Positions 12,724-28,167 of a stretch of DNA of 32,000 nucleotides are shown piece by piece. The notes beneath the pieces were generated by a model, which worked only from the letters and a program-made list of their open reading frames with translations, was not told where the DNA came from and searched no databases. The position numbers and the translations under genes are program-made. The first letter of the stretch is position 1, and each line of letters opens with the position of its first letter. The stretch is from Trichodesmium erythraeum IMS101 (lineage in GTDB: Bacteria > Cyanobacteriota > Cyanobacteriia > Cyanobacteriales > Microcoleaceae): assembly GCF_000014265.1 (NCBI RefSeq), contig NC_008312.1, positions 90,001 through 122,000 of the forward strand, in the 5' to 3' direction.

Positions 12724-13311
12724 TTAGTCATCCACAATTTGAGCCCAATCTGGGAAAGAAGGAGGAAAAAAATTAATATCGTACTCAGACTCTTCCCACT
12801 CATCAACCCATAATGGCACTACCCCTACCCCTTGTATAGGAGTTCTTGAGAATACCCTTTCCCTTGATTCAATAGTGTGAAATATCTGTTTAAGGGTATC
12901 TCCTAAATTAAGATTGAAACTTAAGAGTTCGTCCAATTCAGGGTCAAGTCGTTTGACTCTTTGTTTATCATCCTCAACCCACAAAAGTTTTAAAGACTTG
13001 AGGGATCTTGGACTAAGCTGAGAGCGATAATAAACACGCTTAAGTTGAGCTACAGGCTCCAAGCTTCTTTCTACTCTCCTAATTTGCTGTAACCGAAGAA
13101 AGTGCCACTCTGCCAAATGTTTTCGCTCTTCAGGAGGTATTTTCCCTTTGCTAGTAGCGTGTTGAAAGGCATATCTGGCACAACTACATCCAAGATTAGC
13201 TAACAAATGGATTAACTGTTTCTCTTTCGGAGTTGCTTGTCTTCTTTCTGCAGTTCTCGTAATAAGCCTTTTTCTGCGTGTAGTAGTTGTTGTATCCATT
13301 ATTTTGGTCAA
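12724..13311 (-). CDS. Hypothetical protein (195 aa) with a basic N-terminus and an acidic C-terminus
   Basis: This is a clean ORF that looks less AT-rich than its surroundings. It has an N-terminal TTTTRRKRLITRTAERRQ and a C-terminal WVDEWEESEYD...DWAQIVDD. No family was recognised. Confidence 0.6.
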   Translation of the reverse strand: MTKIMDTTTTTRRKRLITRTAERRQATPKEKQLIHLLANLGCSCARYAFQHATSKGKIPPEERKHLAEWHFLRLQQIRRVERSLEPVAQLKRVYYRSQLSPRSLKSLKLLWVEDDKQRVKRLDPELDELLSFNLNLGDTLKQIFHTIESRERVFSRTPIQGVGVVPLWVDEWEESEYDINFFPPSFPDWAQIVDD

Positions 13312-13449: not shown

Positions 13450-13650
13450 TTATGGATTTGTCTCTATGACCTCTGCGTTTCCATCTTCATCATTTCCTTC
13501 GTAAGGTGGTTTATCACTAATTAATATTTGACTCTCTTCAATCGTTGTCCCATAAGATAGCCCTAAGTTCCAGGTAGTAGCCTTTGGCATTTGGCCAAAT
13601 GTTAAGCCTGCGGAGGCTATTAATCCGAAAGCGATAATATTCTGTTTCAT
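13450..13650 (-). CDS. Small ORF (66 aa) with a signal-peptide-like N-terminus; coding status uncertain
   Basis: MKQNIIAFGLIASAGLTFGQ... followed by an acidic tail. Its start codon lies in sequence resembling the 5' end of the queE relics (GTTTCATGGTAG), so it may be a fortuitous ORF. Confidence 0.3.
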   Translation of the reverse strand: MKQNIIAFGLIASAGLTFGQMPKATTWNLGLSYGTTIEESQILISDKPPYEGNDEDGNAEVIETNP

Positions 13651-13772
13651 GGTAGTAGATGAACCCTGTCTAGTGCTTGGAATTAACCACTAATGCTTTT
13701 GCCACCTGTAAAAAATGGGTTTTTGCAAAAGCCCTCTTGTATTCCAAAGAATCAGTCTGTAATTATATAAGA

Positions 13773-14022
13773 AACATAGGCACAACCTGATGGATTACAA
13801 AAAACTGGAATTGAGGTATTAGTAGTCTTATCACTATATTCTCCTAAATCCTAATATTTGGGATGTGGATTATAAACCATTAGGGAGTTAAGCCATCAGG
13901 TAACTAGTCCATCTAGGAGTTGTCCATCAGGGGCATCTACTTTTCATCTAACTATCAGGGCGTATCTTTCATCTGCAGTTCTAAAATCGCTGTCTATTCT
14001 TTCAATAGGCAGTATTTTTTTT
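13773..14022 (+). ncRNA. Candidate spacer RNA, unit A
   Basis: Promoter-like TTGTAT-17-TAATTA at 13737-13765. It also has the ACCTGATGG/CCATCAGGT pairing arms, three CCATC..GG motifs, the hairpin 13989-14012 and an 8-T run. The boundaries are guesses. Confidence 0.3.
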
Positions 14023-14063
14023 ATGATACCAATTCCTGAACTTAATACTCAGATTGATTGTAA

Positions 14064-14591
14064 TTATGTCATACCCAAATATTTATGTAATTGTATAAAT
14101 AGTCGGCAATGAGGATATTCCTGAAGTAATTGTTGGACTAATGGTAAAGTTAGATCATAATTATACTACTCTGCTTATAGGAAAACAGGAGTCTTATTCT
14201 TTACTAATAAAATCTTACTATAAAATTCTAATTCTTTACCTGTTTCTATAACCAATTTGATTTTTGAAGCTCTTGTCCACATTGACGGGACAATTGGATA
14301 TTTATGACTAATGTGTTCTTTAGGGCTAAGAGTTACCCAAGGGTTAGGGGAAATATTTTGCCAGTAGCAACAGTTGGTTTCAATTATTACTTGTCTATCG
14401 GTCTATAAGGTTTGAAAGTTTGAGGTTGACCTCTTCTACTCATAGCTCTATCAACATACGCTAGTATCATGGGTCAGAGCACCTACGACTAGGCCACCTG
14501 CAAGAGGAATAAAATCTGCTGCTGTACTTGCCTAATAACCTATAGTTTTTGGGTATGTTTCATGGTGGAGACCGATTAAATTTCCTGTAAT
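14064..14591 (-). pseudogene. queE relic, unit A (most diverged 3' part)
   Basis: Homologous to queE along its length but ends HKYLGMT*. It has additional disruptions in the 3' third, and its 5' part is near-identical to the other relics. Confidence 0.8.
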
Positions 14592-14735
14592 TTCTCAGGT
14601 TTTCAGAAGTAGGGCTCAAGAGTGGCCCGAAGAAATCTCCCCCAAAATCAATACTAACTTTTCATCATCAGTAAAAACTGGGTTTTTGCAAAAGACCTCT
14701 TGTATTCTAAAGAATGAGTCTGTAATTATATAATA

Positions 14736-14995
14736 AGCATAGGCACAACCTGATGGATTACAAAAACCACAAAGTGAGGTGTTAGTAGTCGTATCATTTA
14801 TCTTCTTCTAAAGTCCTACTATTTGGGCTCTTAATTATTAACAATTAAAACAATTAGGGAGTTAAGCCATCAGGTAACTAGTCCATCTAGGAGTTGTCCA
14901 TCAAGGGCATCTAATTTTCATTTAACTATTCAGGGCGTATCTTTCATCTGCAGTTCTAAAATCGCTGTCTATTGTCCCAATAGACAGCATTTTCT
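14736..14995 (+). ncRNA. Candidate spacer RNA, unit B
   Basis: Same module as unit F, shifted. The terminator hairpin is at 14964-14988. Confidence 0.3.
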
Positions 14996-15036
14996 AATTA
15001 TACCATTTTTTCAGTCTCATGCTCATGATTATTTAA

Positions 15037-15433
15037 TTATTTTATGCCTAAATATTTATGTAATTGTATAGATAGTCGGCAATGAGAATATTCCCGAAGT
15101 AATTTTTGGACTAATGGTAGAGTGAAATCACGGTTATACGACTCTGGTTGTAGGAAAACAGGAGTCTGATTCTTTACTAATAAAATCTTACTATAAAATT
15201 CTAATTCTTTACCTGTTTCTATAACCAATTTGATTTCTGAAGCTCTTGTCCACATTGACGGGACAAGTTGACCTCTTCTACTCATAGCTCTATCAACATA
15301 CGCTAGTATCATGGGTCAGAGCACCTACGACTAGGCCACCTGCAAGAGGAATAAAATCTGCTGCTGTACTTGCCTAATAACCTATAGTTTTTGGGCATGT
15401 TTCATGGTAGAGACCGATTAAATTTCCTGTAAT
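15037..15433 (-). pseudogene. queE relic, unit B (extra 131-bp deletion)
   Basis: Same as units C-F except that GGGACAA is joined directly to GTTGACC. The join creates a fortuitous 91-aa ORF. Confidence 0.85.
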
Positions 15434-15577
15434 TTCTCAGGTTTTCAGAAGTAGGTATCAAGAGTGGCCCGAAGAAATCTCCCCCAAAATCAATACTAAC
15501 TTTTCATCATCAGTAAAAACTGGGTTTTTGCAAAAGACCTCTTGTATTCTAAAGAATGAGTCTGTAATTATATAAGA

Positions 15578-15837
15578 AGCATAGGCACAACCTGATGGAT
15601 TACAAAAACCACAAAGTGAGGTGTTAGTAGTCGTATCATTTATCTTCTTCTAAAGTCCTACTATTTGGGCTCTTAATTATTAACAATTAAAACAATTAGG
15701 GAGTTAAGCCATCAGGTAACTAGTCCATCTAGGAGTTGTCCATCAAGGGCATCTAATTTTCATTTAACTATTCAGGGCGTATCTTTCATCTGCAGTTCTA
15801 AAATCGCTGTCTATTGTCCCAATAGACAGCATTTTCT
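15578..15837 (+). ncRNA. Candidate spacer RNA, unit C
   Basis: Same module. The hairpin is at 15806-15830. Confidence 0.3.
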
Positions 15838-15878
15838 AATTATACCATTTTTTCAGTCTCATGCTCATGATTATTTAA

Positions 15879-16406
15879 TTATTTTATGCCTAAATATTTA
15901 TGTAATTGTATAGATAGTCGGCAATGAGAATATTCCTGAAGTAATTTTTGGACTAATGGTAGAGTGAAATCACGGTTATACGACTCTGGTTGTAGGAAAA
16001 CAGGAGTCTTATTCTTTACTAATAAAATCTTACTATAAAATTCTAATTCTTTACCTGTTTCTATAACCAATTTGATTTTTGAAGCTCTTGTCCACATTGA
16101 CGGGACAATTGGATATTTATGACTAATGTGTTCTTTAGGGCTAAGAGTTACCCAAGGGTTAGGGGAAATATTTTGCCAGTAGCAACAGTTGGTTTCAATT
16201 ATTACTTGTCTATTGGTCTATAAGGTTTGAAAGTTTGAGGTTGACCTCTTCTACTCATAGCTCTATCAACATACGCTAGTATCATGGGTCAGAGCACCTA
16301 CTACTAGGCCACCTGCAAGAGGAATAAAATCTGCTGCTGTACTTGCCTAATAACCTATAGTTTTTGGGTATGTTTCATGGTAGAGACCGATTAAATTTCC
16401 TGTAAT
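15879..16406 (-). pseudogene. queE relic, unit C
   Basis: 528 bp versus 624 bp for the intact gene between equivalent landmarks. The radical-SAM cysteine codons are lost, and only the 72-codon C-terminal frame is open. Confidence 0.9.
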
Positions 16407-16550
16407 TTCTCAGGTTTTCAGAAGTAAGGATAAAGAGTGGCCCGAAGAAATATTCCCCAAAATCAATACTAACTTTTCATCATCAGTAAAAACTGGGTTT
16501 TTGCAAAAGACCTCTTGTATTCTAAAGAATGAGTCTGTAATTATATAAGA

Positions 16551-16810
16551 AGCATAGGCACAACCTGATGGATTACAAAAACCACAAAGTGAGGTGTTAG
16601 TAGTCGTATCATTTATCTTCTTCTAAAGTCCTACTATTTGGGCTCTTAATTATTAACAATTAAAACAATTAGGGAGTTAAGCCATCAGGTAACTAGTCCA
16701 TCTAGGAGTTGTCCATCAAGGGCATCTAATTTTCATTTAACTATTCAGGGCGTATCTTTCATCTGCAGTTCTAAAATCGCTGTCTATTGTCCCAATAGAC
16801 AGCATTTTCT
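16551..16810 (+). ncRNA. Candidate spacer RNA, unit D
   Basis: Same module. The hairpin is at 16779-16803. Confidence 0.3.
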
Positions 16811-16851
16811 AATTATACCATTTTTTCAGTCTCATGCTCATGATTATTTAA

Positions 16852-17379
16852 TTATTTTATGCCTAAATATTTATGTAATTGTATAGATAGTCGGCAATGA
16901 GAATATTCCCGAAGTAATTTTTGGACTAATGGTAGAGTGAAATCACGGTTATACGACTCTGGTTGTAGGAAAACAGGAGTCTTATTCTTTACTAATAAAA
17001 TCTTACTATAAAATTCTAATTCTTTACCTGTTTCTATAACCAATTTGATTTTTGAAGCTCTTGTCCACACTGATGAGACAATTGGATATTTATGACTAAT
17101 GTGTTCTTTAGGGCTAAGAGTTACCCAAGGGTTAGGGGAAATATTTTGCTAGTAGCAACAGTTGGTTTCAATTATTACTTGTCTATCGGTCTATAAGGTT
17201 TGAAAGTTTGAGGTTGACCTCTTCTACTCATAGCTCTATCAACATACGCTAGTATCATGGGTCAGACTACCTACTACTAGGCCACCTGCAAGAGGAATAA
17301 AATCTGCTGCTGTACCTGCCTAATAACCTATAGTTTTTGGGTATGTTTCATGGTAGAGACCGATTAAATTTCCTGTAAT
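16852..17379 (-). pseudogene. queE relic, unit D
   Basis: Same lesions as unit C. It carries CACACTGATGAGACA instead of CACATTGACGGGACA. Confidence 0.9.
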
Positions 17380-17523
17380 TTCTCAGGTTTTCAGAAGTAG
17401 GTATCAAGAGTGGCCCGAAGAAATCTCCCCCAAAATCAATACTAACTTTTCATCATCAGTAAAAACTGGGTTTTTGCAAAAGACCTCTTGTATTCTAAAG
17501 AATGAGTCTGTAATTATATAAGA

Positions 17524-17783
17524 AGCATAGGCACAACCTGATGGATTACAAAAACCACAAAGTGAGGTGTTAGTAGTCGTATCATTTATCTTCTTCTAAA
17601 GTCCTACTATTTGGGCTCTTAATTATTAACAATTAAAACAATTAGGGAGTTAAGCCATCAGGTAACTAGTCCATCTAGGAGTTGTCCATCAAGGGCATCT
17701 AATTTTCATTTAACTATTCAGGGCGTATCTTTCATCTGCAGTTCTAAAATCGCTGTCTATTGTCCCAATAGACAGCATTTTCT
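17524..17783 (+). ncRNA. Candidate spacer RNA, unit E
   Basis: Same module. The hairpin is at 17752-17776. Confidence 0.3.
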
Positions 17784-17824
17784 AATTATACCATTTTTTC
17801 AGTCTCATGCTCATGATTATTTAA

Positions 17825-18352
17825 TTATTTTATGCCTAAATATTTATGTAATTGTATAGATAGTCGGCAATGAGAATATTCCCGAAGTAATTTTTGGACT
17901 AATGGTAGAGTGAAATCACGGTTATACGACTCTGGTTGTAGGAAAACAGGAGTCTTATTCTTTACTAATAAAATCTTACTATAAAATTCTAATTCTTTAC
18001 CTGTTTCTATAACCAATTTGATTTTTGAAGCTCTTGTCCACACTGATGAGACAATTGGATATTTATGACTAATGTGTTCTTTAGGGCTAAGAGTTACCCA
18101 AGGGTTAGGGGAAATATTTTGCCAGTAGCAACAGTTGGTTTCAATTATTACTTGTCTATCGGTCTATAAGGTTTGAAAGTTTGAGGTTGACCTCTTCTAC
18201 TCATAGCTCTATCAACATACGCTAGTATCATGGGTCAGAGCACCTACGACTAGGCCACCTGCAAGAGGAATAAAATCTGCTGCTGTACCTGCCTAATAAC
18301 CTATAGTTTTTGGGTATGTTTCATGGTGGAGACCGATTAAATTTCCTGTAAT
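17825..18352 (-). pseudogene. queE relic, unit E
   Basis: Same as unit D. Confidence 0.9.
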
Positions 18353-18460
18353 TTCTCAGGTTTTCAGAAGTAGGTATCAAGAGTGGCCCGAAGAAATCTC
18401 CCCCAAAATCAATACTAACTTTTCATCATCAGTAAAAACTGGGTTTTTGCAAAAGACCTC

Positions 18461-18489
18461 TTGTATTCTAAAGAATGAGTCTGTAATTA
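18461..18489 (+). promoter_or_regulatory. Sigma70-like promoter candidate for the spacer RNA (reference copy; present in all seven units)
   Basis: TTGTAT (18461-18466), a 17-bp spacer, then TAATTA (18484-18489). The same string is conserved even in the diverged unit A (13737-13765). Confidence 0.3.
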
Positions 18490-18496
18490 TATAAGA

Positions 18497-18756
18497 AGCA
18501 TAGGCACAACCTGATGGATTACAAAAACCACAAAGTGAGGTGTTAGTAGTCGTATCATTTATCTTCTTCTAAAGTCCTACTATTTGGGCTCTTAATTATT
18601 AACAATTAAAACAATTAGGGAGTTAAGCCATCAGGTAACTAGTCCATCTAGGAGTTGTCCATCAAGGGCATCTAATTTTCATTTAACTATTCAGGGCGTA
18701 TCTTTCATCTGCAGTTCTAAAATCGCTGTCTATTGTCCCAATAGACAGCATTTTCT
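18497..18756 (+). ncRNA. Candidate spacer RNA, unit F (reference copy)
   Basis: ACCTGATGG (18509-18517) is complementary to CCATCAGGT (18628-18636). CCATCAGG, CCATCTAGG and CCATCAAGG lie at 18628, 18644 and 18659. The hairpin is GCTGTCTATT-GTCCC-AATAGACAGC (18725-18749), followed by ATTTTCT. Confidence 0.3.
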
Positions 18757-18797
18757 AATTATACCATTTTTTCAGTCTCATGCTCATGATTATTTAA

Positions 18798-19325
18798 TTA
18801 TTTTATGCCTAAATATTTATGTAATTGTATAGATAGTCGGCAATGAGAATATTCCCGAAGTAATTTTTGGACTAATGGTAGAGTGAAATCACGGTTATAC
18901 GACTCTGGTTGTAGGAAAACAGGAGTCTTATTCTTTACTAATAAAATCTTACTATAAAATTCTAATTCTTTACCTGTTTCTATAACCAATTTGATTTTTG
19001 AAGCTCTTGTCCACACTGATGAGACAATTGGATATTTATGACTAATGTGTTCTTTAGGGCTAAGAGTTACCCAAGGGTTAGGGGAAATATTTTGCCAGTA
19101 GCAACAGTTGGTTTCAATTATTACTTGTCTATCGGTCTATAAGGTTTGAAAGTTTGAGGTTGACCTCTTCTACTCATAGCTCTATCAACATACGCTAGTA
19201 TCATGGGTCAGAGCACCTACGACTAGGCCACCTGCAAGAGGAATAAAATCTGCTGCTGTACCTGCCTAATAACCTATAGTTTTTGGGTATGTTTCATGGT
19301 GGAGACCGATTAAATTTCCTGTAAT
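18798..19325 (-). pseudogene. queE relic, unit F
   Basis: Same as unit D. Confidence 0.9.
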
Positions 19326-19469
19326 TTCTCAGGTTTTCAGAAGTAGGTATCAAGAGTGGCCCGAAGAAATCTCCCCCAAAATCAATACTAACTTTTCATC
19401 ATCAGTAAAAACTGGGTTTTTGCAAAAGACCTCTTGTATTCTAAAGAATGAGTCTGTAATTATATAAGA

Positions 19470-19729
19470 AGCATAGGCACAACCTGATGGATTACAAAAA
19501 CCACAAAGTGAGGTGTTAGTAGTCGTATCATTTATCTTCTTCTAAAGTCCTACTATTTGGGCTCTTAATTATTAACAATTAAAACAATTAGGGAGTTAAG
19601 CCATCAGGTAACTAGTCCATCTAGGAGTTGTCCATCAAGGGCATCTAATTTTCATTTAACTATTCAGGGCGTATCTTTCATCTACAGTTCTAAAATCGCT
19701 GTCTATTGTCCCAATAGGCAGCATTTTCT
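19470..19729 (+). ncRNA. Candidate spacer RNA, unit G (convergent with the intact queE)
   Basis: Same module. The hairpin at 19698-19722 has one A-to-G change that gives a U-G pair on the plus strand. Confidence 0.3.
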
Positions 19730-19770
19730 AATTATACCATTTTTTCAGTCTCATGCTCATGATTATTTAA

Positions 19771-20394
19771 TTATTTTATGCCTAAATATTTGTGTAATTG
19801 TATAGATAGTCGGCAATGAGGATATTCCTGAAGTAATTTTTGGACTAATGGTAGAGTGAAATCACGGTTATACCACTCTGGTTGTAAGAAAACAGGAGTC
19901 TGATTCTTTAATAATAAAATCTTACTATAAAATTCTAATTCTTTACCTGTTTCTATAACCAATTTGATTTCTGAAGCTCTTGTCCACATTGACGGGACAA
20001 TTGGATATTTATGACTAATGTGTTCTTTAGGGCTAAGAGTTACCCAAGCGTTAGGGGAAATATTTTGCCAGTAGCAACCGGAGGTTTCAATAGAAACTTG
20101 TCTACCTGTCGCTTCTATTCTGTTTATTAAAGCTGGTAGTTGTTTATGAATAAAAGGTTCGCCACCAGAAATAACAACTCTAGGAGAAAATAACTCATTA
20201 ATTAACTTATCCAAAGTTTGAATTTGACGAGGTAAACTAATGCCTCCATCTGCATAACCAGTATCACAATAATGACAACCTACTGGGCAACCTGCAAGAC
20301 GAATAAAATCTACTGGTGTACCTGCCCAATAACCTTCTCCTTGAATAGTTTTTTGGAATGTTTCATGGATAGGAATAATTAAATTTTCTGTCAT
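19771..20394 (-). CDS. queE: 7-carboxy-7-deazaguanine synthase (radical SAM; queuosine/preQ0 pathway)
   Basis: From ATG 20394 it reads [45 protein letters not shown], which includes the CxxxCxxC cluster and the QGEG motif. The protein is 207 aa. The upstream MLVLCC... extension in the ORF track was not used. Confidence 0.9.
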
Positions 20395-20606
20395 TTTTAA
20401 GATTTTAAGAACTAGGGAGTAGGAATTAGAGAGTAGGGAAGATAGGCAGCAGAGAACAAGCAAAAAAATAAATATAAGTTGTCATTAACCTTGGCGCGCA
20501 ACTACACAAAATTATTGAAAAAGTACGATGTTTATACATAGATTAGATTTCAGTTTCTTGATAAGTATCATTTATTTTGTTTACCCATTTATATTAATTC
20601 CTGATT

Positions 20607-21539
20607 TTAATCAATTACAGGTTTAAGTTTTTCCTTTTCAATTGTTAATTTCTTCGGCACTATAACTGCTAAAGCTAAAGGAACTATTTGAAAATAAGCC
20701 GGAGTATAAGTGACAATTTCTCCATCAGTATTAATAGGACGAGGTTTCCGAGTATAAACATTAATAAAAGAAGCAGATAAAGAACGAAAACCAAAGCTTT
20801 CTTGATATTTTCCTTGCCATATAGAAGGTAAAATACCAACAAATTGCCAACAATATTTCACTTCTAAGCTATATAAATCTAGCCTTTGGTTGTCAATTGT
20901 AGCATCATGAGCGATAGTCATTCCACCTCCATAATGTCTGCCATTTCCTACGGCAACTTGTAAAGTCTTAACTATTCTTGATTCACCATTACAACTAATT
21001 TCTGCTGTAAAAGGGTGACTTTGTAAAATCATTTTAATGGCAGCAATAGCATAAGCTAGTACACCCCACCGAAGCTTTGCTTCTTTCGTTAAATGATTAG
21101 TAATATCTACACTTAATCCAATACTAGCAACATTGAAAAAATATTTACCATTGACTAAGCCTAAGTCTATATAACGTTTTTTACCAGTAGCGATCACTCG
21201 ACAAGCTTCAAATAAAGAAATAGGAATTCCTAAAGTTCTGGCTAAATCATTAGCTGTTCCTAATGGTAAAATTCCCAAAGGTAAACCTGTTTTAACCAGA
21301 GCATCTATGGCTAAATTTAATGTGCCATCCCCACCACCGATAATTATCAGATTTACCTGATTTTTATAGCTTTGAATAAAATAGTTAAAATCTTGGGGAA
21401 ATTCAACTTTTTTGTAGATAATTTCTAGCCCAAAATTTTGTAAGTAAGTTAAGGCTAAATGTAGATTTTTTTTAGCTTTTCTGGCATGAAAATTTACTAA
21501 TAAAAGAGCTTTTTTTGATTCTATTTTATTTAGATTCAT
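20607..21539 (-). CDS. Diacylglycerol-kinase-family lipid kinase (YegS/BmrU-like)
   Basis: 310-aa ORF with the GGGDGT nucleotide-binding motif (IIIGGGDGTLNLAI) and GILPLGTANDLAR. Confidence 0.85.
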   Translation of the reverse strand: MNLNKIESKKALLLVNFHARKAKKNLHLALTYLQNFGLEIIYKKVEFPQDFNYFIQSYKNQVNLIIIGGGDGTLNLAIDALVKTGLPLGILPLGTANDLARTLGIPISLFEACRVIATGKKRYIDLGLVNGKYFFNVASIGLSVDITNHLTKEAKLRWGVLAYAIAAIKMILQSHPFTAEISCNGESRIVKTLQVAVGNGRHYGGGMTIAHDATIDNQRLDLYSLEVKYCWQFVGILPSIWQGKYQESFGFRSLSASFINVYTRKPRPINTDGEIVTYTPAYFQIVPLALAVIVPKKLTIEKEKLKPVID

Positions 21540-25131: not shown

Positions 25132-25994
25132 TTAATTAGATTGAATATAATTTTCAAAATTATCTTGAATTACTCTTTCATATTCAAAGGAAGGAATCTC
25201 AAATAGCCTATCTTGTACTTGCTCAGTTTTTACAGGATAATTTATCAATTTCTCTAATTTAAACGGATATCTAATCGGGCGATCGCTCAAGGCATATCTT
25301 ATTTATTGAATACTAGAAAGTTGACTGGCTCCATATACTTGAAGTTTCCCTTTTTCATAGCAAACACTAGCTTCAATTGTATACTAAAAAAGTCTAGCTA
25401 TTTCATGTTGTATATCTTGGTCATTAACATTTTTTCTAATTATATATTGATTGCCTAAATATTTTAAAAAGTTAGAATAAATTAGGAAAAAAAGTAAGGG
25501 AAGATGACCAAAAATATCATGCCAAAGATTGAGAAGTCGAGAAAAATTAATATCAGTATCCGATCTGATAAAAGTTGCTATGGCAAAATAACGATGAGAA
25601 AGCAGATAAAAAAATGTGTCTGCTTCTAATAATCCTATAACTGGCCATAATTGCTATCCAATTTGTTCTTGTAAAAAGTCTGAAAGATGATTAATATTAG
25701 GAATATCTTGAATCAAATTTTTGATTTTTGCTAAACCTGCAATAAATTTTTCATTGCTCGACTTTCAATAGTTTCTAATTGTGTATTTAAAGGTTGTTTC
25801 CAATTACGATGGGCTTGGGTTTTATACTGATAAAAGTTCTTTTCCAGCAATAAATTTTTCATTGCTCGACTTTCAATAGTTTCTAATTGTGTATTTAAAA
25901 GTTGTTTCCAATTACGATGGGCTTGGGTTTTATACTCATAAAAGTTCTTTTCCAGCCTTTCATAAAGTAATTTTTCCAAAGTTATGGATTGCAT
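25132..25994 (-). pseudogene. phhA: Phenylalanine-4-hydroxylase pseudogene
   Basis: The minus strand reads ...HRNWKQLLNTQLETIESRAMKNLL..GLAKIKNLIQDIPNINHLSDFLQEQIG*QLWPVIGLLEADTFFYLLSHRYFAIATFIRSDTDINF..LWHDIFGHLPLL, and later LQVYGASQLSS. This is the aromatic amino-acid hydroxylase catalytic core, including HDxFGH. It has in-frame stops, frameshifts and a 108-bp internal duplication. Confidence 0.75.
25739..25954. repeat. 2 x 108-bp tandem duplication inside the phhA pseudogene
   Basis: GCAATAAATTTTTCATTGCTCGACTTTCAATAG... begins at 25739 and again at 25847. It encodes the duplicated EKNFY[E/Q]YKTQAHRNWKQ[L/P]LNTQLETIESRAMKNLL. Confidence 0.9.
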
Positions 25995-27106: not shown

Positions 27107-27210
27107 TATAAACAATTCGTAAAAAATGCTCATAAATAATAAAAATAATTTCTCAAAATTAACTAATATAATTTTTTTTAAAAAAATGGTTTTTTTTGAT
27201 ATGATTAAAT

Positions 27211-27774
27211 CTAAAAATTTGGGTAATAAATTTAATTAAAAAAATGGTTAATCAATATAAAATAATTACTAATTATTAGTATTGATTGATGATTTATGGT
27301 TACTATAACTATGATGATAGAGCTAAACTAATATACTTAATTGTAGGTAATAATTGTCATATTTTGAACTAGGAGTAGGAACGGGATTACTTGCAGAAAA
27401 GTACATGAAACTTGACAATACTTGTGAGTTTACGGGGGTTGATATTACACTATGGTTTCTGTAAATTACTAAAAAATGTTTGGGAAATAAAGCTAAAAAT
27501 TTGGGTAATAAATTTAATTAAAAAAATGGTTAATCAATATAAAATAATTACTAATTATTAGTATTGATTGATGATTTATGGTTACTATAACTATGATGAT
27601 AGAGCTAAACTAAGATACTTAATTGTAGGTAATAATTGTCATATTTTGAACTAGGAGTAGGAACGGGATTACTTGCAGAAAAGTACATGAAACTTGACAA
27701 TACTTGTGAGTTTACGGGGGTTGATATTACACTATCGTTTATGTAAATTACTAAAAAATGTTTGGGAAATAAAG
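27211..27774. repeat. 2 x 282-bp tandem duplication
   Basis: CTAAAAATTTGGGTAATAAATTTAATTAAAAAAATGGTTAATC... starts at 27211 and again at 27493. The two copies differ at a few positions. Confidence 0.9.
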
Positions 27775-28167
27775 CTAAGTTAATTGTAGCTGATGCTCTA
27801 ACAATGGAACTAAATACAACTTTTGATGTTGCTATATCAAATTGAGGAGTTTGGCTATTTGTTAGTTGTGGCGATCGCTTAGAGTTAGTCAGTCATATTC
27901 CTGATGTTGAAACTAACTATTAATAACTCAAAAATTTAGTTGGTCATTTACGAAAAGGAGGTTCATTTTTTGAAATATACAAAAGTTTGGAATTGATATC
28001 GTAAAAAAAAGCTATTGCCTTAAGAAAAGGCTGAATTTTTAGCTCAAGAAAAAGTAACTATTATCTTGTTTAAGTTGGATACTTATCAGAAATCATTCAA
28101 TGAAGTAGGGTTTGATTTTCAAGGTATTAATAATGATAAAAGCTTGGTAATCTACAACAATAAATAG
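27211..28167 (+). pseudogene. Class I SAM-dependent methyltransferase pseudogene (5' part tandemly duplicated)
   Basis: Reads ILELGVGTGLLAEKYMKLDNTCEFTGVDITLSFM*ITKKCLGNKAKLIVADALTMELNTTFDVAISN*GVWLF...LVGHLRKGGSFF. This is the motif I E/DxGxGxG with the post-I and motif II/III layout. It has stops and frameshifts and ends at 28165-28167. Confidence 0.65.

Follow-up and report, generated by a model that had tools for sequence, protein, structure and literature searches.

The tandem-repeat non-coding RNA of Trichodesmium erythraeum IMS101 belongs to a conserved Oscillatoriales RNA family with periodic sequence modules

NsiR1 of heterocystous cyanobacteria is an RNA of ~60 nt encoded in short units. 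Its gene, a small RNA (sRNA) gene of the Nostocales, is reportedly (Ionescu et al. 2010) arranged as a tandem direct-repeat array upstream of hetF. A tandem array encoding a non-coding RNA (ncRNA) is also known from Trichodesmium erythraeum IMS101, where more than 6 kb at genome positions 103000-110200 hold seven 736-973-bp repeats, of which repeat 1 is missing ~130 bp and repeat 0 is diverged (~87%), with partial duplications of Tery_0080 (queE) on the reverse strand (Pfreundt et al. 2014, Sci Rep 4:6187; PMC4143802). The present analysis concerns this array and its RNA within a stretch of 32,000 nucleotides (the window; contig NC_008312.1, positions 90,001 to 122,000). Differential RNA sequencing gave seven forward-strand starts (listed in Table 1), from which the transcripts are named ncf103766, ncf104733 and ncf105575 to ncf109467, and the major transcript on Northern blots is ~260 nt long (PMC4143802). 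Transcription starts at a T in repeat 1 and at a G in repeats 2-6, the 216 nt that follow are 100% identical, and the tandem-repeat ncRNA, the most abundant non-coding RNA, contributes 44.7% of all start-site-associated primary reads (PMC4143802). The part of the repeat outside queE had no similarity elsewhere in T. erythraeum or in any GenBank genome, mobile elements and duplication were suggested as the origin of the repeats (PMC4143802), and the function was given as unknown both there and in a 2015 review (PMC6596454).

The seven-copy array in the window is this published ncRNA, hence already known, and the locus, the starts, the ~260-nt transcript and the Tery_0080 copies are those of the identical object. 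Published start coordinates are converted to window coordinates by subtracting 89999 (Table 1), and on that scale the window covers IMS101 positions 90000-121999. T is then placed at 14734 and G at 15576, 16549, 17522, 18495 and 19468. The 216 nt after the start are identical at 216/216 positions (215/216 in the last repeat), and the distance from start site to U-tract is 262 nt compared with the Northern band of ~260 nt. The identity is established because repeat number, lengths, start spacing, the T/G start polymorphism and the 216-nt identity all match. A preliminary description of the window, made from the sequence alone, had proposed a plus-strand transcript of ~250 nt in seven copies, starting near 18497 and ending near 18756. 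The published start at 18495 and the Northern result bear this out and mean that it is not new. The sequence features which that description listed were all recovered, at equivalent positions in the seven units (A to G in Table 1). A literature search found no characterization of the RNA after 2015, and searching by sequence string returned unrelated primer sequences only.

Relative to the published account, the orthologues of the RNA, its neighbourhood with two reading frames termed p66 and p195 and the periodicity of its modules are added here. Like NsiR1, it is a cyanobacterial sRNA gene reiterated in tandem with each unit carrying its own promoter and terminator. It differs in being a ~260-nt RNA in 973-bp units that include a pseudogene, in flanking queE and p66-p195, in forming an array in one species with single-copy relatives, and in having a non-heterocystous host of the Oscillatoriales.

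A conserved RNA family

The RNA is a family conserved in filamentous Oscillatoriales cyanobacteria and is single-copy in most genomes. Syntenic loci were collected from one genome per species with the neighbouring lipid kinase gene (window 20607-21539) as anchor. The best lipid kinase match in this species-representative collection was 88% (Trichodesmium metagenome-assembled genome (MAG) MAG_R03) and none was 100%; T. erythraeum itself seems to be absent from the collection or masked in it. BLASTN and nhmmer placed the spacer sequence downstream of queE, and convergent with it, in the syntenic loci of relatives. Together the synteny search and nhmmer yielded 21 orthologue sequences. Aligned over 300-370 nt, identity is 78-88% for three other Trichodesmium MAGs, six Okeania, three Dapis and four additional Microcoleaceae MAGs, and ~65% for three further MAGs. 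A metagenome scan with a two-block pattern contributed 11 more homologues.

Over the 86 loci anchored on the lipid kinase, nhmmer found no homologue beyond the Trichodesmium/Okeania/Dapis clade and three MAGs, and the wider family was found only after the anchor was switched to p195. The DNA around nine p195 homologues was examined for the RNA. Matches by nhmmer lie upstream of the p195 homologues of Microcoleus (E = 8e-24), Phormidium ETS-05 (3e-15), Planktothrix (2e-4) and Capilliphycus (1e-3), and the RNA is also present upstream of p195 in two Capilliphycus-like metagenome contigs (nhmmer and motif inspection). The weakest case is an Oscillatoriales contig in which the nhmmer match has E = 0.06, the promoter block is a variant and a single module is present. 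No RNA was found in a contig with 726 nt of upstream sequence, nor beside a remote p195 homologue of 36% identity. A scan of viral contigs with a two-module pattern gave more than 120 matches, mostly chance or coding repeats, and the sole nhmmer viral match (IMG/VR, L113:1170-1237) is an unrelated phage coding repeat in which CCATCAGGCAGTAAT occurs four times with a 15-nt period.

The identity to the Okeania hirsuta orthologue is 85.2% for unit A and 78.7% for unit F, compared with 69.7% for queE third codon positions and an adjacent spacer that is essentially unalignable (12%). At 85.2% the RNA is conserved like the flanking coding genes, a mark of selection on it. Conservation begins ~75 nt upstream of the start site and ends at the U-tract. 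In the homologous spacers of relatives the motifs are conserved, but the 5' arm degenerates in distant homologues.

The loci of relatives carry one RNA copy each with two exceptions. Locus L028 (L028:11615-12225, minus strand; MAG binchicken_co405_168) has the full RNA gene twice in tandem without an intervening queE fragment, a duplication that is independent of the T. erythraeum array. In Trichodesmium sp. MAG_R02 (L026:4468-6642) one full copy lies ~2 kb from queE and is accompanied by fragments of a second; pieces matching model positions 178-251, 126-181 and 47-137 each have a location of their own, a pattern resembling disruption by insertions.

Periodic modules and transcription signals

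The CCATC(N0-1)AGG motif occurs 30 times in the window against an expectation of 1.27 +/- 1.14, and 28 of these occurrences are in the array, with three sense copies and one antisense copy (the arm) in each unit. The three CCATC..AGG motifs at 18628, 18644 and 18659 described earlier are confirmed, and such motifs constitute CCAUCAGGG modules of a 16-nt unit with the consensus CCAUCAGGGAGUUAAN. The modules are the most conserved part of the RNA. A 17-nt core of the module array, UAGUCCAUCUAGGAGUU, is invariant in all 29 aligned sequences, 21 of which derive from synteny and are free of search bias. The modules are placed at 106, 122, 138, 154 and 170 nt in the Microcoleus RNA, at 104, 120, 136 and 152 nt in L028a, at 108, 124, 140 and 155 nt in Okeania and at 96, 112, 128 and 147 nt in Phormidium. 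Their number ranges from 1-3 (Capilliphycus, Planktothrix) up to 5-6, and Trichodesmium MAG_R02, metagenome L096 and the L028 clade have gained whole modules by insertion.

For the 262-nt segment the plus-strand fold has -61.9 kcal/mol and z = -2.99 relative to shuffles, compared with z = -1.09 for the minus strand. Partition-function folds leave AUCA mostly unpaired and the flanking GG mostly paired, which suggests, as a matter of modelling, that the modules form short CC-AUCA-GG hairpins; CC-to-UC and CC-to-UU changes retain wobble pairing. The central-module hairpin, UCC-AUCUA-GGA with the outer pair 147:166 (UA in 23 sequences, CG in 5), contains one compensatory pair and is, together with the terminator, the best-supported structural element. 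RNAalifold gives a weak covariation term of -1.9 kcal/mol for the 29 sequences, and pairs with double changes number 8 against 3.3 +/- 1.2 in shuffles (0/500), a count to be read with the relatedness of the sequences in mind. Specific helices were tested because an all-pair screen was uninformative, the brute-force comparison of alignment columns producing 671 'covarying' pairs dominated by clade-level co-variation.

Pairing of the 5' arm ACCUGAUGG with motif 1 had been proposed to close a domain of ~110 nt. Both sequences are present and complementary, but the closing helix ACCUGAUGG:CCAUCAGGU is without covariation support. The arm pairs about equally with module 1, 2 or 3 (94-97% canonical cells): with motif 1 there are 93.9% canonical cells, no compensatory change and uncompensated arm changes in 8 of the 29 homologues, and the only compensatory cell is found with motif 3. 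None of these three alternative helices is favoured or backed by compensation, and Microcoleus, Planktothrix and Capilliphycus have intact modules but a decayed arm.

The promoter box TTGTAT-17-TAATTA was uncalled by a simple promoter scan because TAATTA fails a rule demanding T at position 6, and it is validated by the published start 6 nt past TAATTA. Orthologues retain both the -35 TTG and TAATTATA. Directly upstream lies a near-palindromic block of 22 bp, near-invariant in 23 orthologues and kept as GTGGGTnATTGCAAnAGnCCnCTTG in Microcoleus, Phormidium, Planktothrix and Capilliphycus, which is probably a regulator-binding site.

At the 3' end, the hairpin at 18725-18749 followed by ATTTTCT (an 8-T run in unit A) was found by the terminator scan, which counts 11 pairs where a perfect 10-bp stem had been noted before. 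In the homologue alignment the terminator pair 271:311 is CG in 17 sequences, UG in 7 and UA in 4, and pair 267:315 is CG in 27 and UA in 1. Pair 270:312 is UA in 22 and UG in 6, the wobble of units A and G recurring in several orthologues. The A-to-G change in the right hairpin arm of these two units is real, and the resulting U.G wobble fits a plus-strand RNA since the minus strand would have an A.C mismatch. All orthologues have a plus-strand T-run after the hairpin. The compensatory changes, the U.G wobbles and the plus-strand T-run identify the hairpin as the terminator of the RNA and not of queE. The terminator stem is extended by an inserted palindrome in some lineages. In Dapis, some Okeania and several metagenome homologues this is a perfect palindrome of ~30 nt, AAGGAAATTAATGATTnAATCATTAATCC, in the terminator loop (alignment columns ~275-305, e.g. 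L010:12790-12860), with arms that co-vary between lineages.

Rfam 15, whose families include CsrB/Rsm, 6S, tmRNA and, where the library has them, the cyanobacterial Yfr/NsiR RNAs, gave no match for the whole window at the gathering score, and one unit searched at E <= 10 matched only unrelated families at chance level (best E = 1.4), so that the Rfam scan suggested in the preliminary description identified no relevant family. ARAGORN found no tRNA or tmRNA, and there is no positionally conserved open reading frame (ORF) in the RNA. With its own start and promoter, a Rho-independent terminator with covariation and unconserved ORFs, the RNA is encoded by an independent sRNA gene.

Genomic neighbours and the tandem array

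Homologues of p195 with at least 65% identity are present in Microcoleus, Planktothrix, Phormidium, Capilliphycus and Oscillatoria, and the family is restricted to the Oscillatoriales; a profile search added one remote homologue. By tblastn, p195 lies beside the RNA in every relative whose contig extends that far and p66 does so in most. In the Trichodesmium-Okeania clade p66 sits between the RNA and p195, and ORFs for it are also called there in Microcoleus and Phormidium, but the loci of Planktothrix and the Capilliphycus type yielded no p66-like ORF. In the matching p195 loci the RNA and its promoter block are directly upstream of p195 and divergent from it. The neighbour on the far side varies and may be queE, a Sll1247-like ATPase, UbiB, HGSNAT, PRK, McrBC or a glycosyltransferase. 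Convergence of the RNA with queE, pointed out earlier, is true of the array and is seen in Trichodesmium, Okeania and Dapis, yet the link is incidental, as other genera have different neighbours there: the stable unit is the RNA with p195, whose adjacency is kept while the other neighbour changes. In the loci of Planktothrix, the Capilliphycus type and Oscillatoriales RM1_1_9 (L100, L103, L105-L107), 1-3 modules coincide with the absence of a recognizable p66, and genomes with p66 have four or more modules, in what is a small sample.

The p195 protein has no match in Pfam (best E = 0.079), NCBIfam or PDB sequences (E = 0.046). Its AlphaFold2 model, built with 48 homologues, is confident, with a predicted local distance difference test score (pLDDT) of 84.7. 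The arginine-rich N-terminus is disordered in it, and two long helices, a three-stranded sheet and additional helices are present; a Foldseek search of the PDB with this model returned no match (best E = 0.17). Residues 1-120 have a net charge of +17 and the C-terminal third of -11. The charge distribution and the model are compatible with nucleic-acid binding, to RNA or DNA.

The translation-initiation region of p66 resembles the last modules of the RNA. Directly before the p66 start, four diverged lineages keep the element (A/U)CAGGG-N1-2-CAUC-N2-7-AUG in a leader that is otherwise unalignable between them. The leader sequence is ACAGGGUUCAUCUACUAC(C/U)AUG in Trichodesmium/Okeania, ACAGGGUGCAUCAACUAUG in L028, AUCAGGGUCAUCGAAAAUG in Microcoleus and AUCAGGGGCAUCUCAUG in Phormidium, and the element matches the last RNA modules, e.g. 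CCAUCAGGGGCAUCUAC.

The seven tandem units occupy ~13690-20460 of the window, with start-to-start distances of 963-975, 842, 973, 973, 973 and 973 bp, the short unit being 131 bp shorter. In the spacer alignment of all seven units the mean column identity is 95%; units B-G are near-identical and unit A is diverged, with 89% identity to the other units over a 131-nt spacer block and 84% to unit F by BLAST over the ~380-nt spacer region. Copy A is the one closest to the orthologues of other genera. The six queE pseudogenes are mutually 98-99% identical; their 3' halves are ~93-95% identical to queE, and their 5' halves are diverged and have a ~91-bp deletion. This pattern suggests amplification of an already-decayed copy, or homogenization of the 3' halves by gene conversion. 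The T. erythraeum-like metagenome contig L002:11723-12182 has a single spacer with an A-like 5' end and an F-like 3' end, and other such contigs have two units; these contigs of one or two units are probably collapsed short-read assemblies. Two more tandem repeats in the window, at 27206-27778 (282 bp x 2.0) and 25739-25956 (108 bp x 2.0), are 98% identical, lie in AT-rich surroundings and are unrelated to the ncRNA array.

Table 1. Features of the array and its neighbours in the window (published starts from PMC4143802; signals and motifs given for copy F)
Feature	Window position	Strand	Details
ncRNA copy A (repeat 0)	13767..14023	+	published start 103766; diverged; hairpin 13989-14013, then 8 T
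ncRNA copy B (repeat 1)	14734..14995	+	published start 104733; start base T; hairpin 14964-14988
ncRNA copy C (repeat 2)	15576..15837	+	published start 105575; hairpin 15806-15830
ncRNA copy D (repeat 3)	16549..16810	+	published start 106548; hairpin 16779-16803
ncRNA copy E (repeat 4)	17522..17783	+	published start 107521; hairpin 17752-17776
ncRNA copy F (repeat 5), reference unit	18495..18756	+	published start 108494; 262 nt
ncRNA copy G (repeat 6)	19468..19729	+	published start 109467; adjoins intact queE; hairpin 19698-19722
Near-palindromic 22-bp block CTGGGTTTTTGCAAAAGACCTC (TGGGTTnTTGCAAAAGnCCTC)	18439..18460	+	upstream of -35, centre ~-45.5; in all seven units
Promoter, -35 TTGTAT, 17-bp spacer, -10 TAATTA	18461..18489	+	start 6 nt downstream; box at six other positions too
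5' arm ACCUGAUGG (DNA ACCTGATGG)	18509..18517	+	complementary to each CCAUCAGG module
Motif-1 pairing partner CCATCAGGT	18628..18636	+	exact complement of 5' arm
Module array	18614..18714	+	AUUAGGG, CCAUCAGG, CCAUCUAGG, CCAUCAAGG in 15-16-nt register, then GCAUCUAA...UUCAGGGCGUAUCUUUCAUCUGCAG
Intrinsic terminator, hairpin and U-tract	18725..18756	+	terminator scan; compensatory changes in homologues
Intact queE (Tery_0080)	19771..20394	-	convergent with copy G; ORF listed to 20463, probable start ATG at 20394
Six degenerate queE copies (pseudogenes)	14061..19460	-	one between each pair of RNA genes
p66 translation-initiation region ACAGGGUUCAUCUACUACCAUG	13648..13669	-	CAGGG-N1-2-CAUC, as in last RNA modules
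p66, 66-aa ORF	13450..13650	-	hydrophobic N-terminus, acidic C-terminus; divergent from copy A
p195, 195-aa basic protein	12724..13311	-	downstream of p66; adjoins RNA

Candidate mechanisms and known systems

The best reading, though a tentative one, is that the RNA acts in trans as a multi-site decoy which titrates a sequence-specific binder and has been amplified in T. erythraeum for dosage. The 3' half of the RNA would display 3-6 CCAUCAGGG modules spaced in a 16-nt register, each probably folded into a CC-AUCA-GG hairpin. The modules would mimic the CAGGG..CAUC element of the p66 leader, and the RNA would draw the binder away from the p66 mRNA and other mRNAs with the element. Judged by its basic character, its arginine-rich N-terminus and its position adjoining the RNA, p195 would be the best candidate for the binder. 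Since a decoy mechanism is stoichiometric, dosage would matter, and this need would explain the seven copies, why two other lineages duplicated the gene independently and why the RNA is so abundant, the queE fragments having been carried along by unequal recombination. The sponge-like function proposed in the preliminary description appears to gain support, as no part of the RNA is conserved better than the motifs, which keep a 16-nt register and vary in number among lineages through module gain and loss. A more specific proposal, and a rather doubtful one, is that the RNA and p195, with p66 as regulated target, form a previously unrecognized RNA-protein titration module of the Oscillatoriales, analogous to CsrA/CsrB and made of unrelated parts: CC-AUCA-GG hairpins at 16-nt intervals would be recognized by an oligomeric arginine-rich protein with a novel fold, and amplification would have brought the decoy to seven gene copies and ~45% of primary transcripts.

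Several points weigh against the decoy model. RNA binding by p195 is a guess from charge and synteny, as the protein has no match in Pfam, in PDB sequences or by Foldseek, and it could equally be a DNA-binding regulator acting on the palindromic promoter block. A multi-site decoy is not universal in the family, since the Planktothrix/Capilliphycus-type loci have 1-3 modules and no p66 was found in them. Covariation in the module hairpins is thin, comprising mostly invariant pairs and C-G to U.G changes, with the sole compensatory pair reflecting a single evolutionary event. Common descent of neighbouring DNA, in place of a shared binder, could account for the resemblance of the p66 leader to the modules, and the abundance in differential RNA sequencing may in part reflect stability of the RNA.

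Other explanations share some of this evidence. In an unlikely alternative the RNA is an sRNA that acts by base pairing through repeated seeds: its CCAUC(A)GG modules would pair with CCUGAUGG around the start codons of targets (GAUGG contains AUG), and the 5' arm would mask one seed or mimic a target. Base pairing is the mode of most characterized cyanobacterial sRNAs (PMC6596454), the arm is a perfect 9-nt complement of module 1 that also pairs well with modules 2 and 3, and the minimum-free-energy fold uses the arm:module pairing. Against this stand the uncompensated arm changes and the decay of the arm described above; a strict 16-nt register with a variable number of modules is moreover unexpected for seeds, and the p66 leader, the only conserved element in a nearby mRNA, shares the sense of the modules, to which it is not complementary. 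It is less likely again that the RNA is a structural or scaffold component of a ribonucleoprotein with p195 and/or p66, in which the modules are assembly sites of an oligomer and the particle itself is functional. The conserved adjacency to p195, the extreme abundance of the RNA, conservation of the 5' domain even in single-module homologues and 16-nt periodic sites that suit an oligomeric or filament-forming binder would all agree with such a particle, but the caveats on binding are those of the decoy, p195 having no recognizable RNA-binding fold, and p195 is probably expressed far below the level of the RNA.

A similarly low probability is given to p195 being a DNA-binding transcription factor that acts on the palindromic block and controls the divergent RNA and p66-p195 promoters, the mechanism of the RNA then being a separate matter. 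Divergent regulator-target gene pairs are common, p195 is basic, and no other promoter feature is as conserved across all genera as the 22-bp near-palindrome. Pfam, PDB sequence search and Foldseek detected neither a helix-turn-helix nor another DNA-binding domain, however, and the modules and the p66-leader motif are left unexplained; a role of p195 as transcription factor is compatible with either the decoy or the base-pairing model of the RNA. It is very improbable that the locus has only a cis effect on queE, by convergent transcription or the shared hairpin, or is a neutral array from unequal recombination with functionless transcripts. The convergence with queE in Trichodesmium, Okeania and Dapis, the queE pseudogene in each unit and the attribution of the repeats to mobile elements and duplication (PMC4143802) accord with this explanation, but comparative sequence data largely refute it, and a cis function tied to queE was rejected as a general explanation: the RNA persists where queE linkage is lost (Microcoleus, Phormidium, Planktothrix, Capilliphycus), its conservation exceeds that of queE third codon positions, and the orthologues have the U-tract on the plus strand only, with U.G wobbles that would be A.C mismatches on the minus strand. 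The least credible explanation, with almost no weight, is a small mRNA for a micro-protein. There are Shine-Dalgarno-like AGGAG/AGGGAG sequences and short ORFs, e.g. from AUG at nt 20, but ORFs from the same start vary from 7 to 38 codons among close relatives and are absent in the L028 clade, none being positionally conserved, and the module array, the most conserved stretch, has no reading-frame pattern. Coding of a micro-protein was rejected on these grounds.

Trichodesmium supplies a large share of the new nitrogen of the tropical ocean, and ~40% of its genome is non-coding. One RNA makes up nearly half of its primary transcripts, and the function of that RNA has stayed obscure since 2014 in part because it was an apparent orphan in an organism without a genetic system. 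The RNA family, its true genomic partner, the periodicity of the modules and the mimicry of a leader are undescribed in the searchable literature, and a family with a fixed neighbour and a motif shared with the leader of a neighbouring gene turns the orphan RNA into a testable hypothesis.

Arginine-rich-motif peptides bind small RNA hairpins, as lambda N does with boxB. The p195 protein likewise begins with a disordered arginine-rich stretch (TTRRKR..TRTAERRQATPKE) and the modules may form short hairpins, a resemblance of composition only, with no detectable homology, and p195 has in addition a folded domain of ~150 aa that has no structural match. Oligomeric proteins of the TRAP/HutP type read trinucleotides 2-4 nt apart in mRNA leaders and act in attenuation control. 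The short motif at fixed spacing, as would suit a symmetric oligomer with one motif per subunit, is a point of likeness, and the difference is that here motifs of 7-9 nt are 16 nt apart in a free-standing RNA.

The CsrB/CsrC/RsmY/RsmZ RNAs are the nearest parallel to the proposed decoy. Under that model an abundant RNA carries reiterated motifs that resemble a motif in the ribosome-binding region of an mRNA, and as in CsrB/RsmZ the number of modules varies among lineages. There is no Rfam match, however, the motif is CCAUCAGGG, for which a loop of AUCA and a stem containing GG are predicted in place of a loop GGA, the spacing is a strict 16 nt, and the candidate partner p195 is unrelated to CsrA, a protein that goes unmentioned in the review searched for it. 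Membership among CsrA sponges of the CsrB/RsmZ type was rejected, as these require many exposed GGA motifs and GGA is present in only 2 of ~5 modules (AGGGAG, UAGGAG). Protein-sequestering RNAs like CsrB/C dominate the primary reads of Alteromonas, and the Trichodesmium RNA likewise dominates its primary transcriptome. If the titration model is true, it would represent a global sponge system like CsrB, described for the first time in cyanobacteria.

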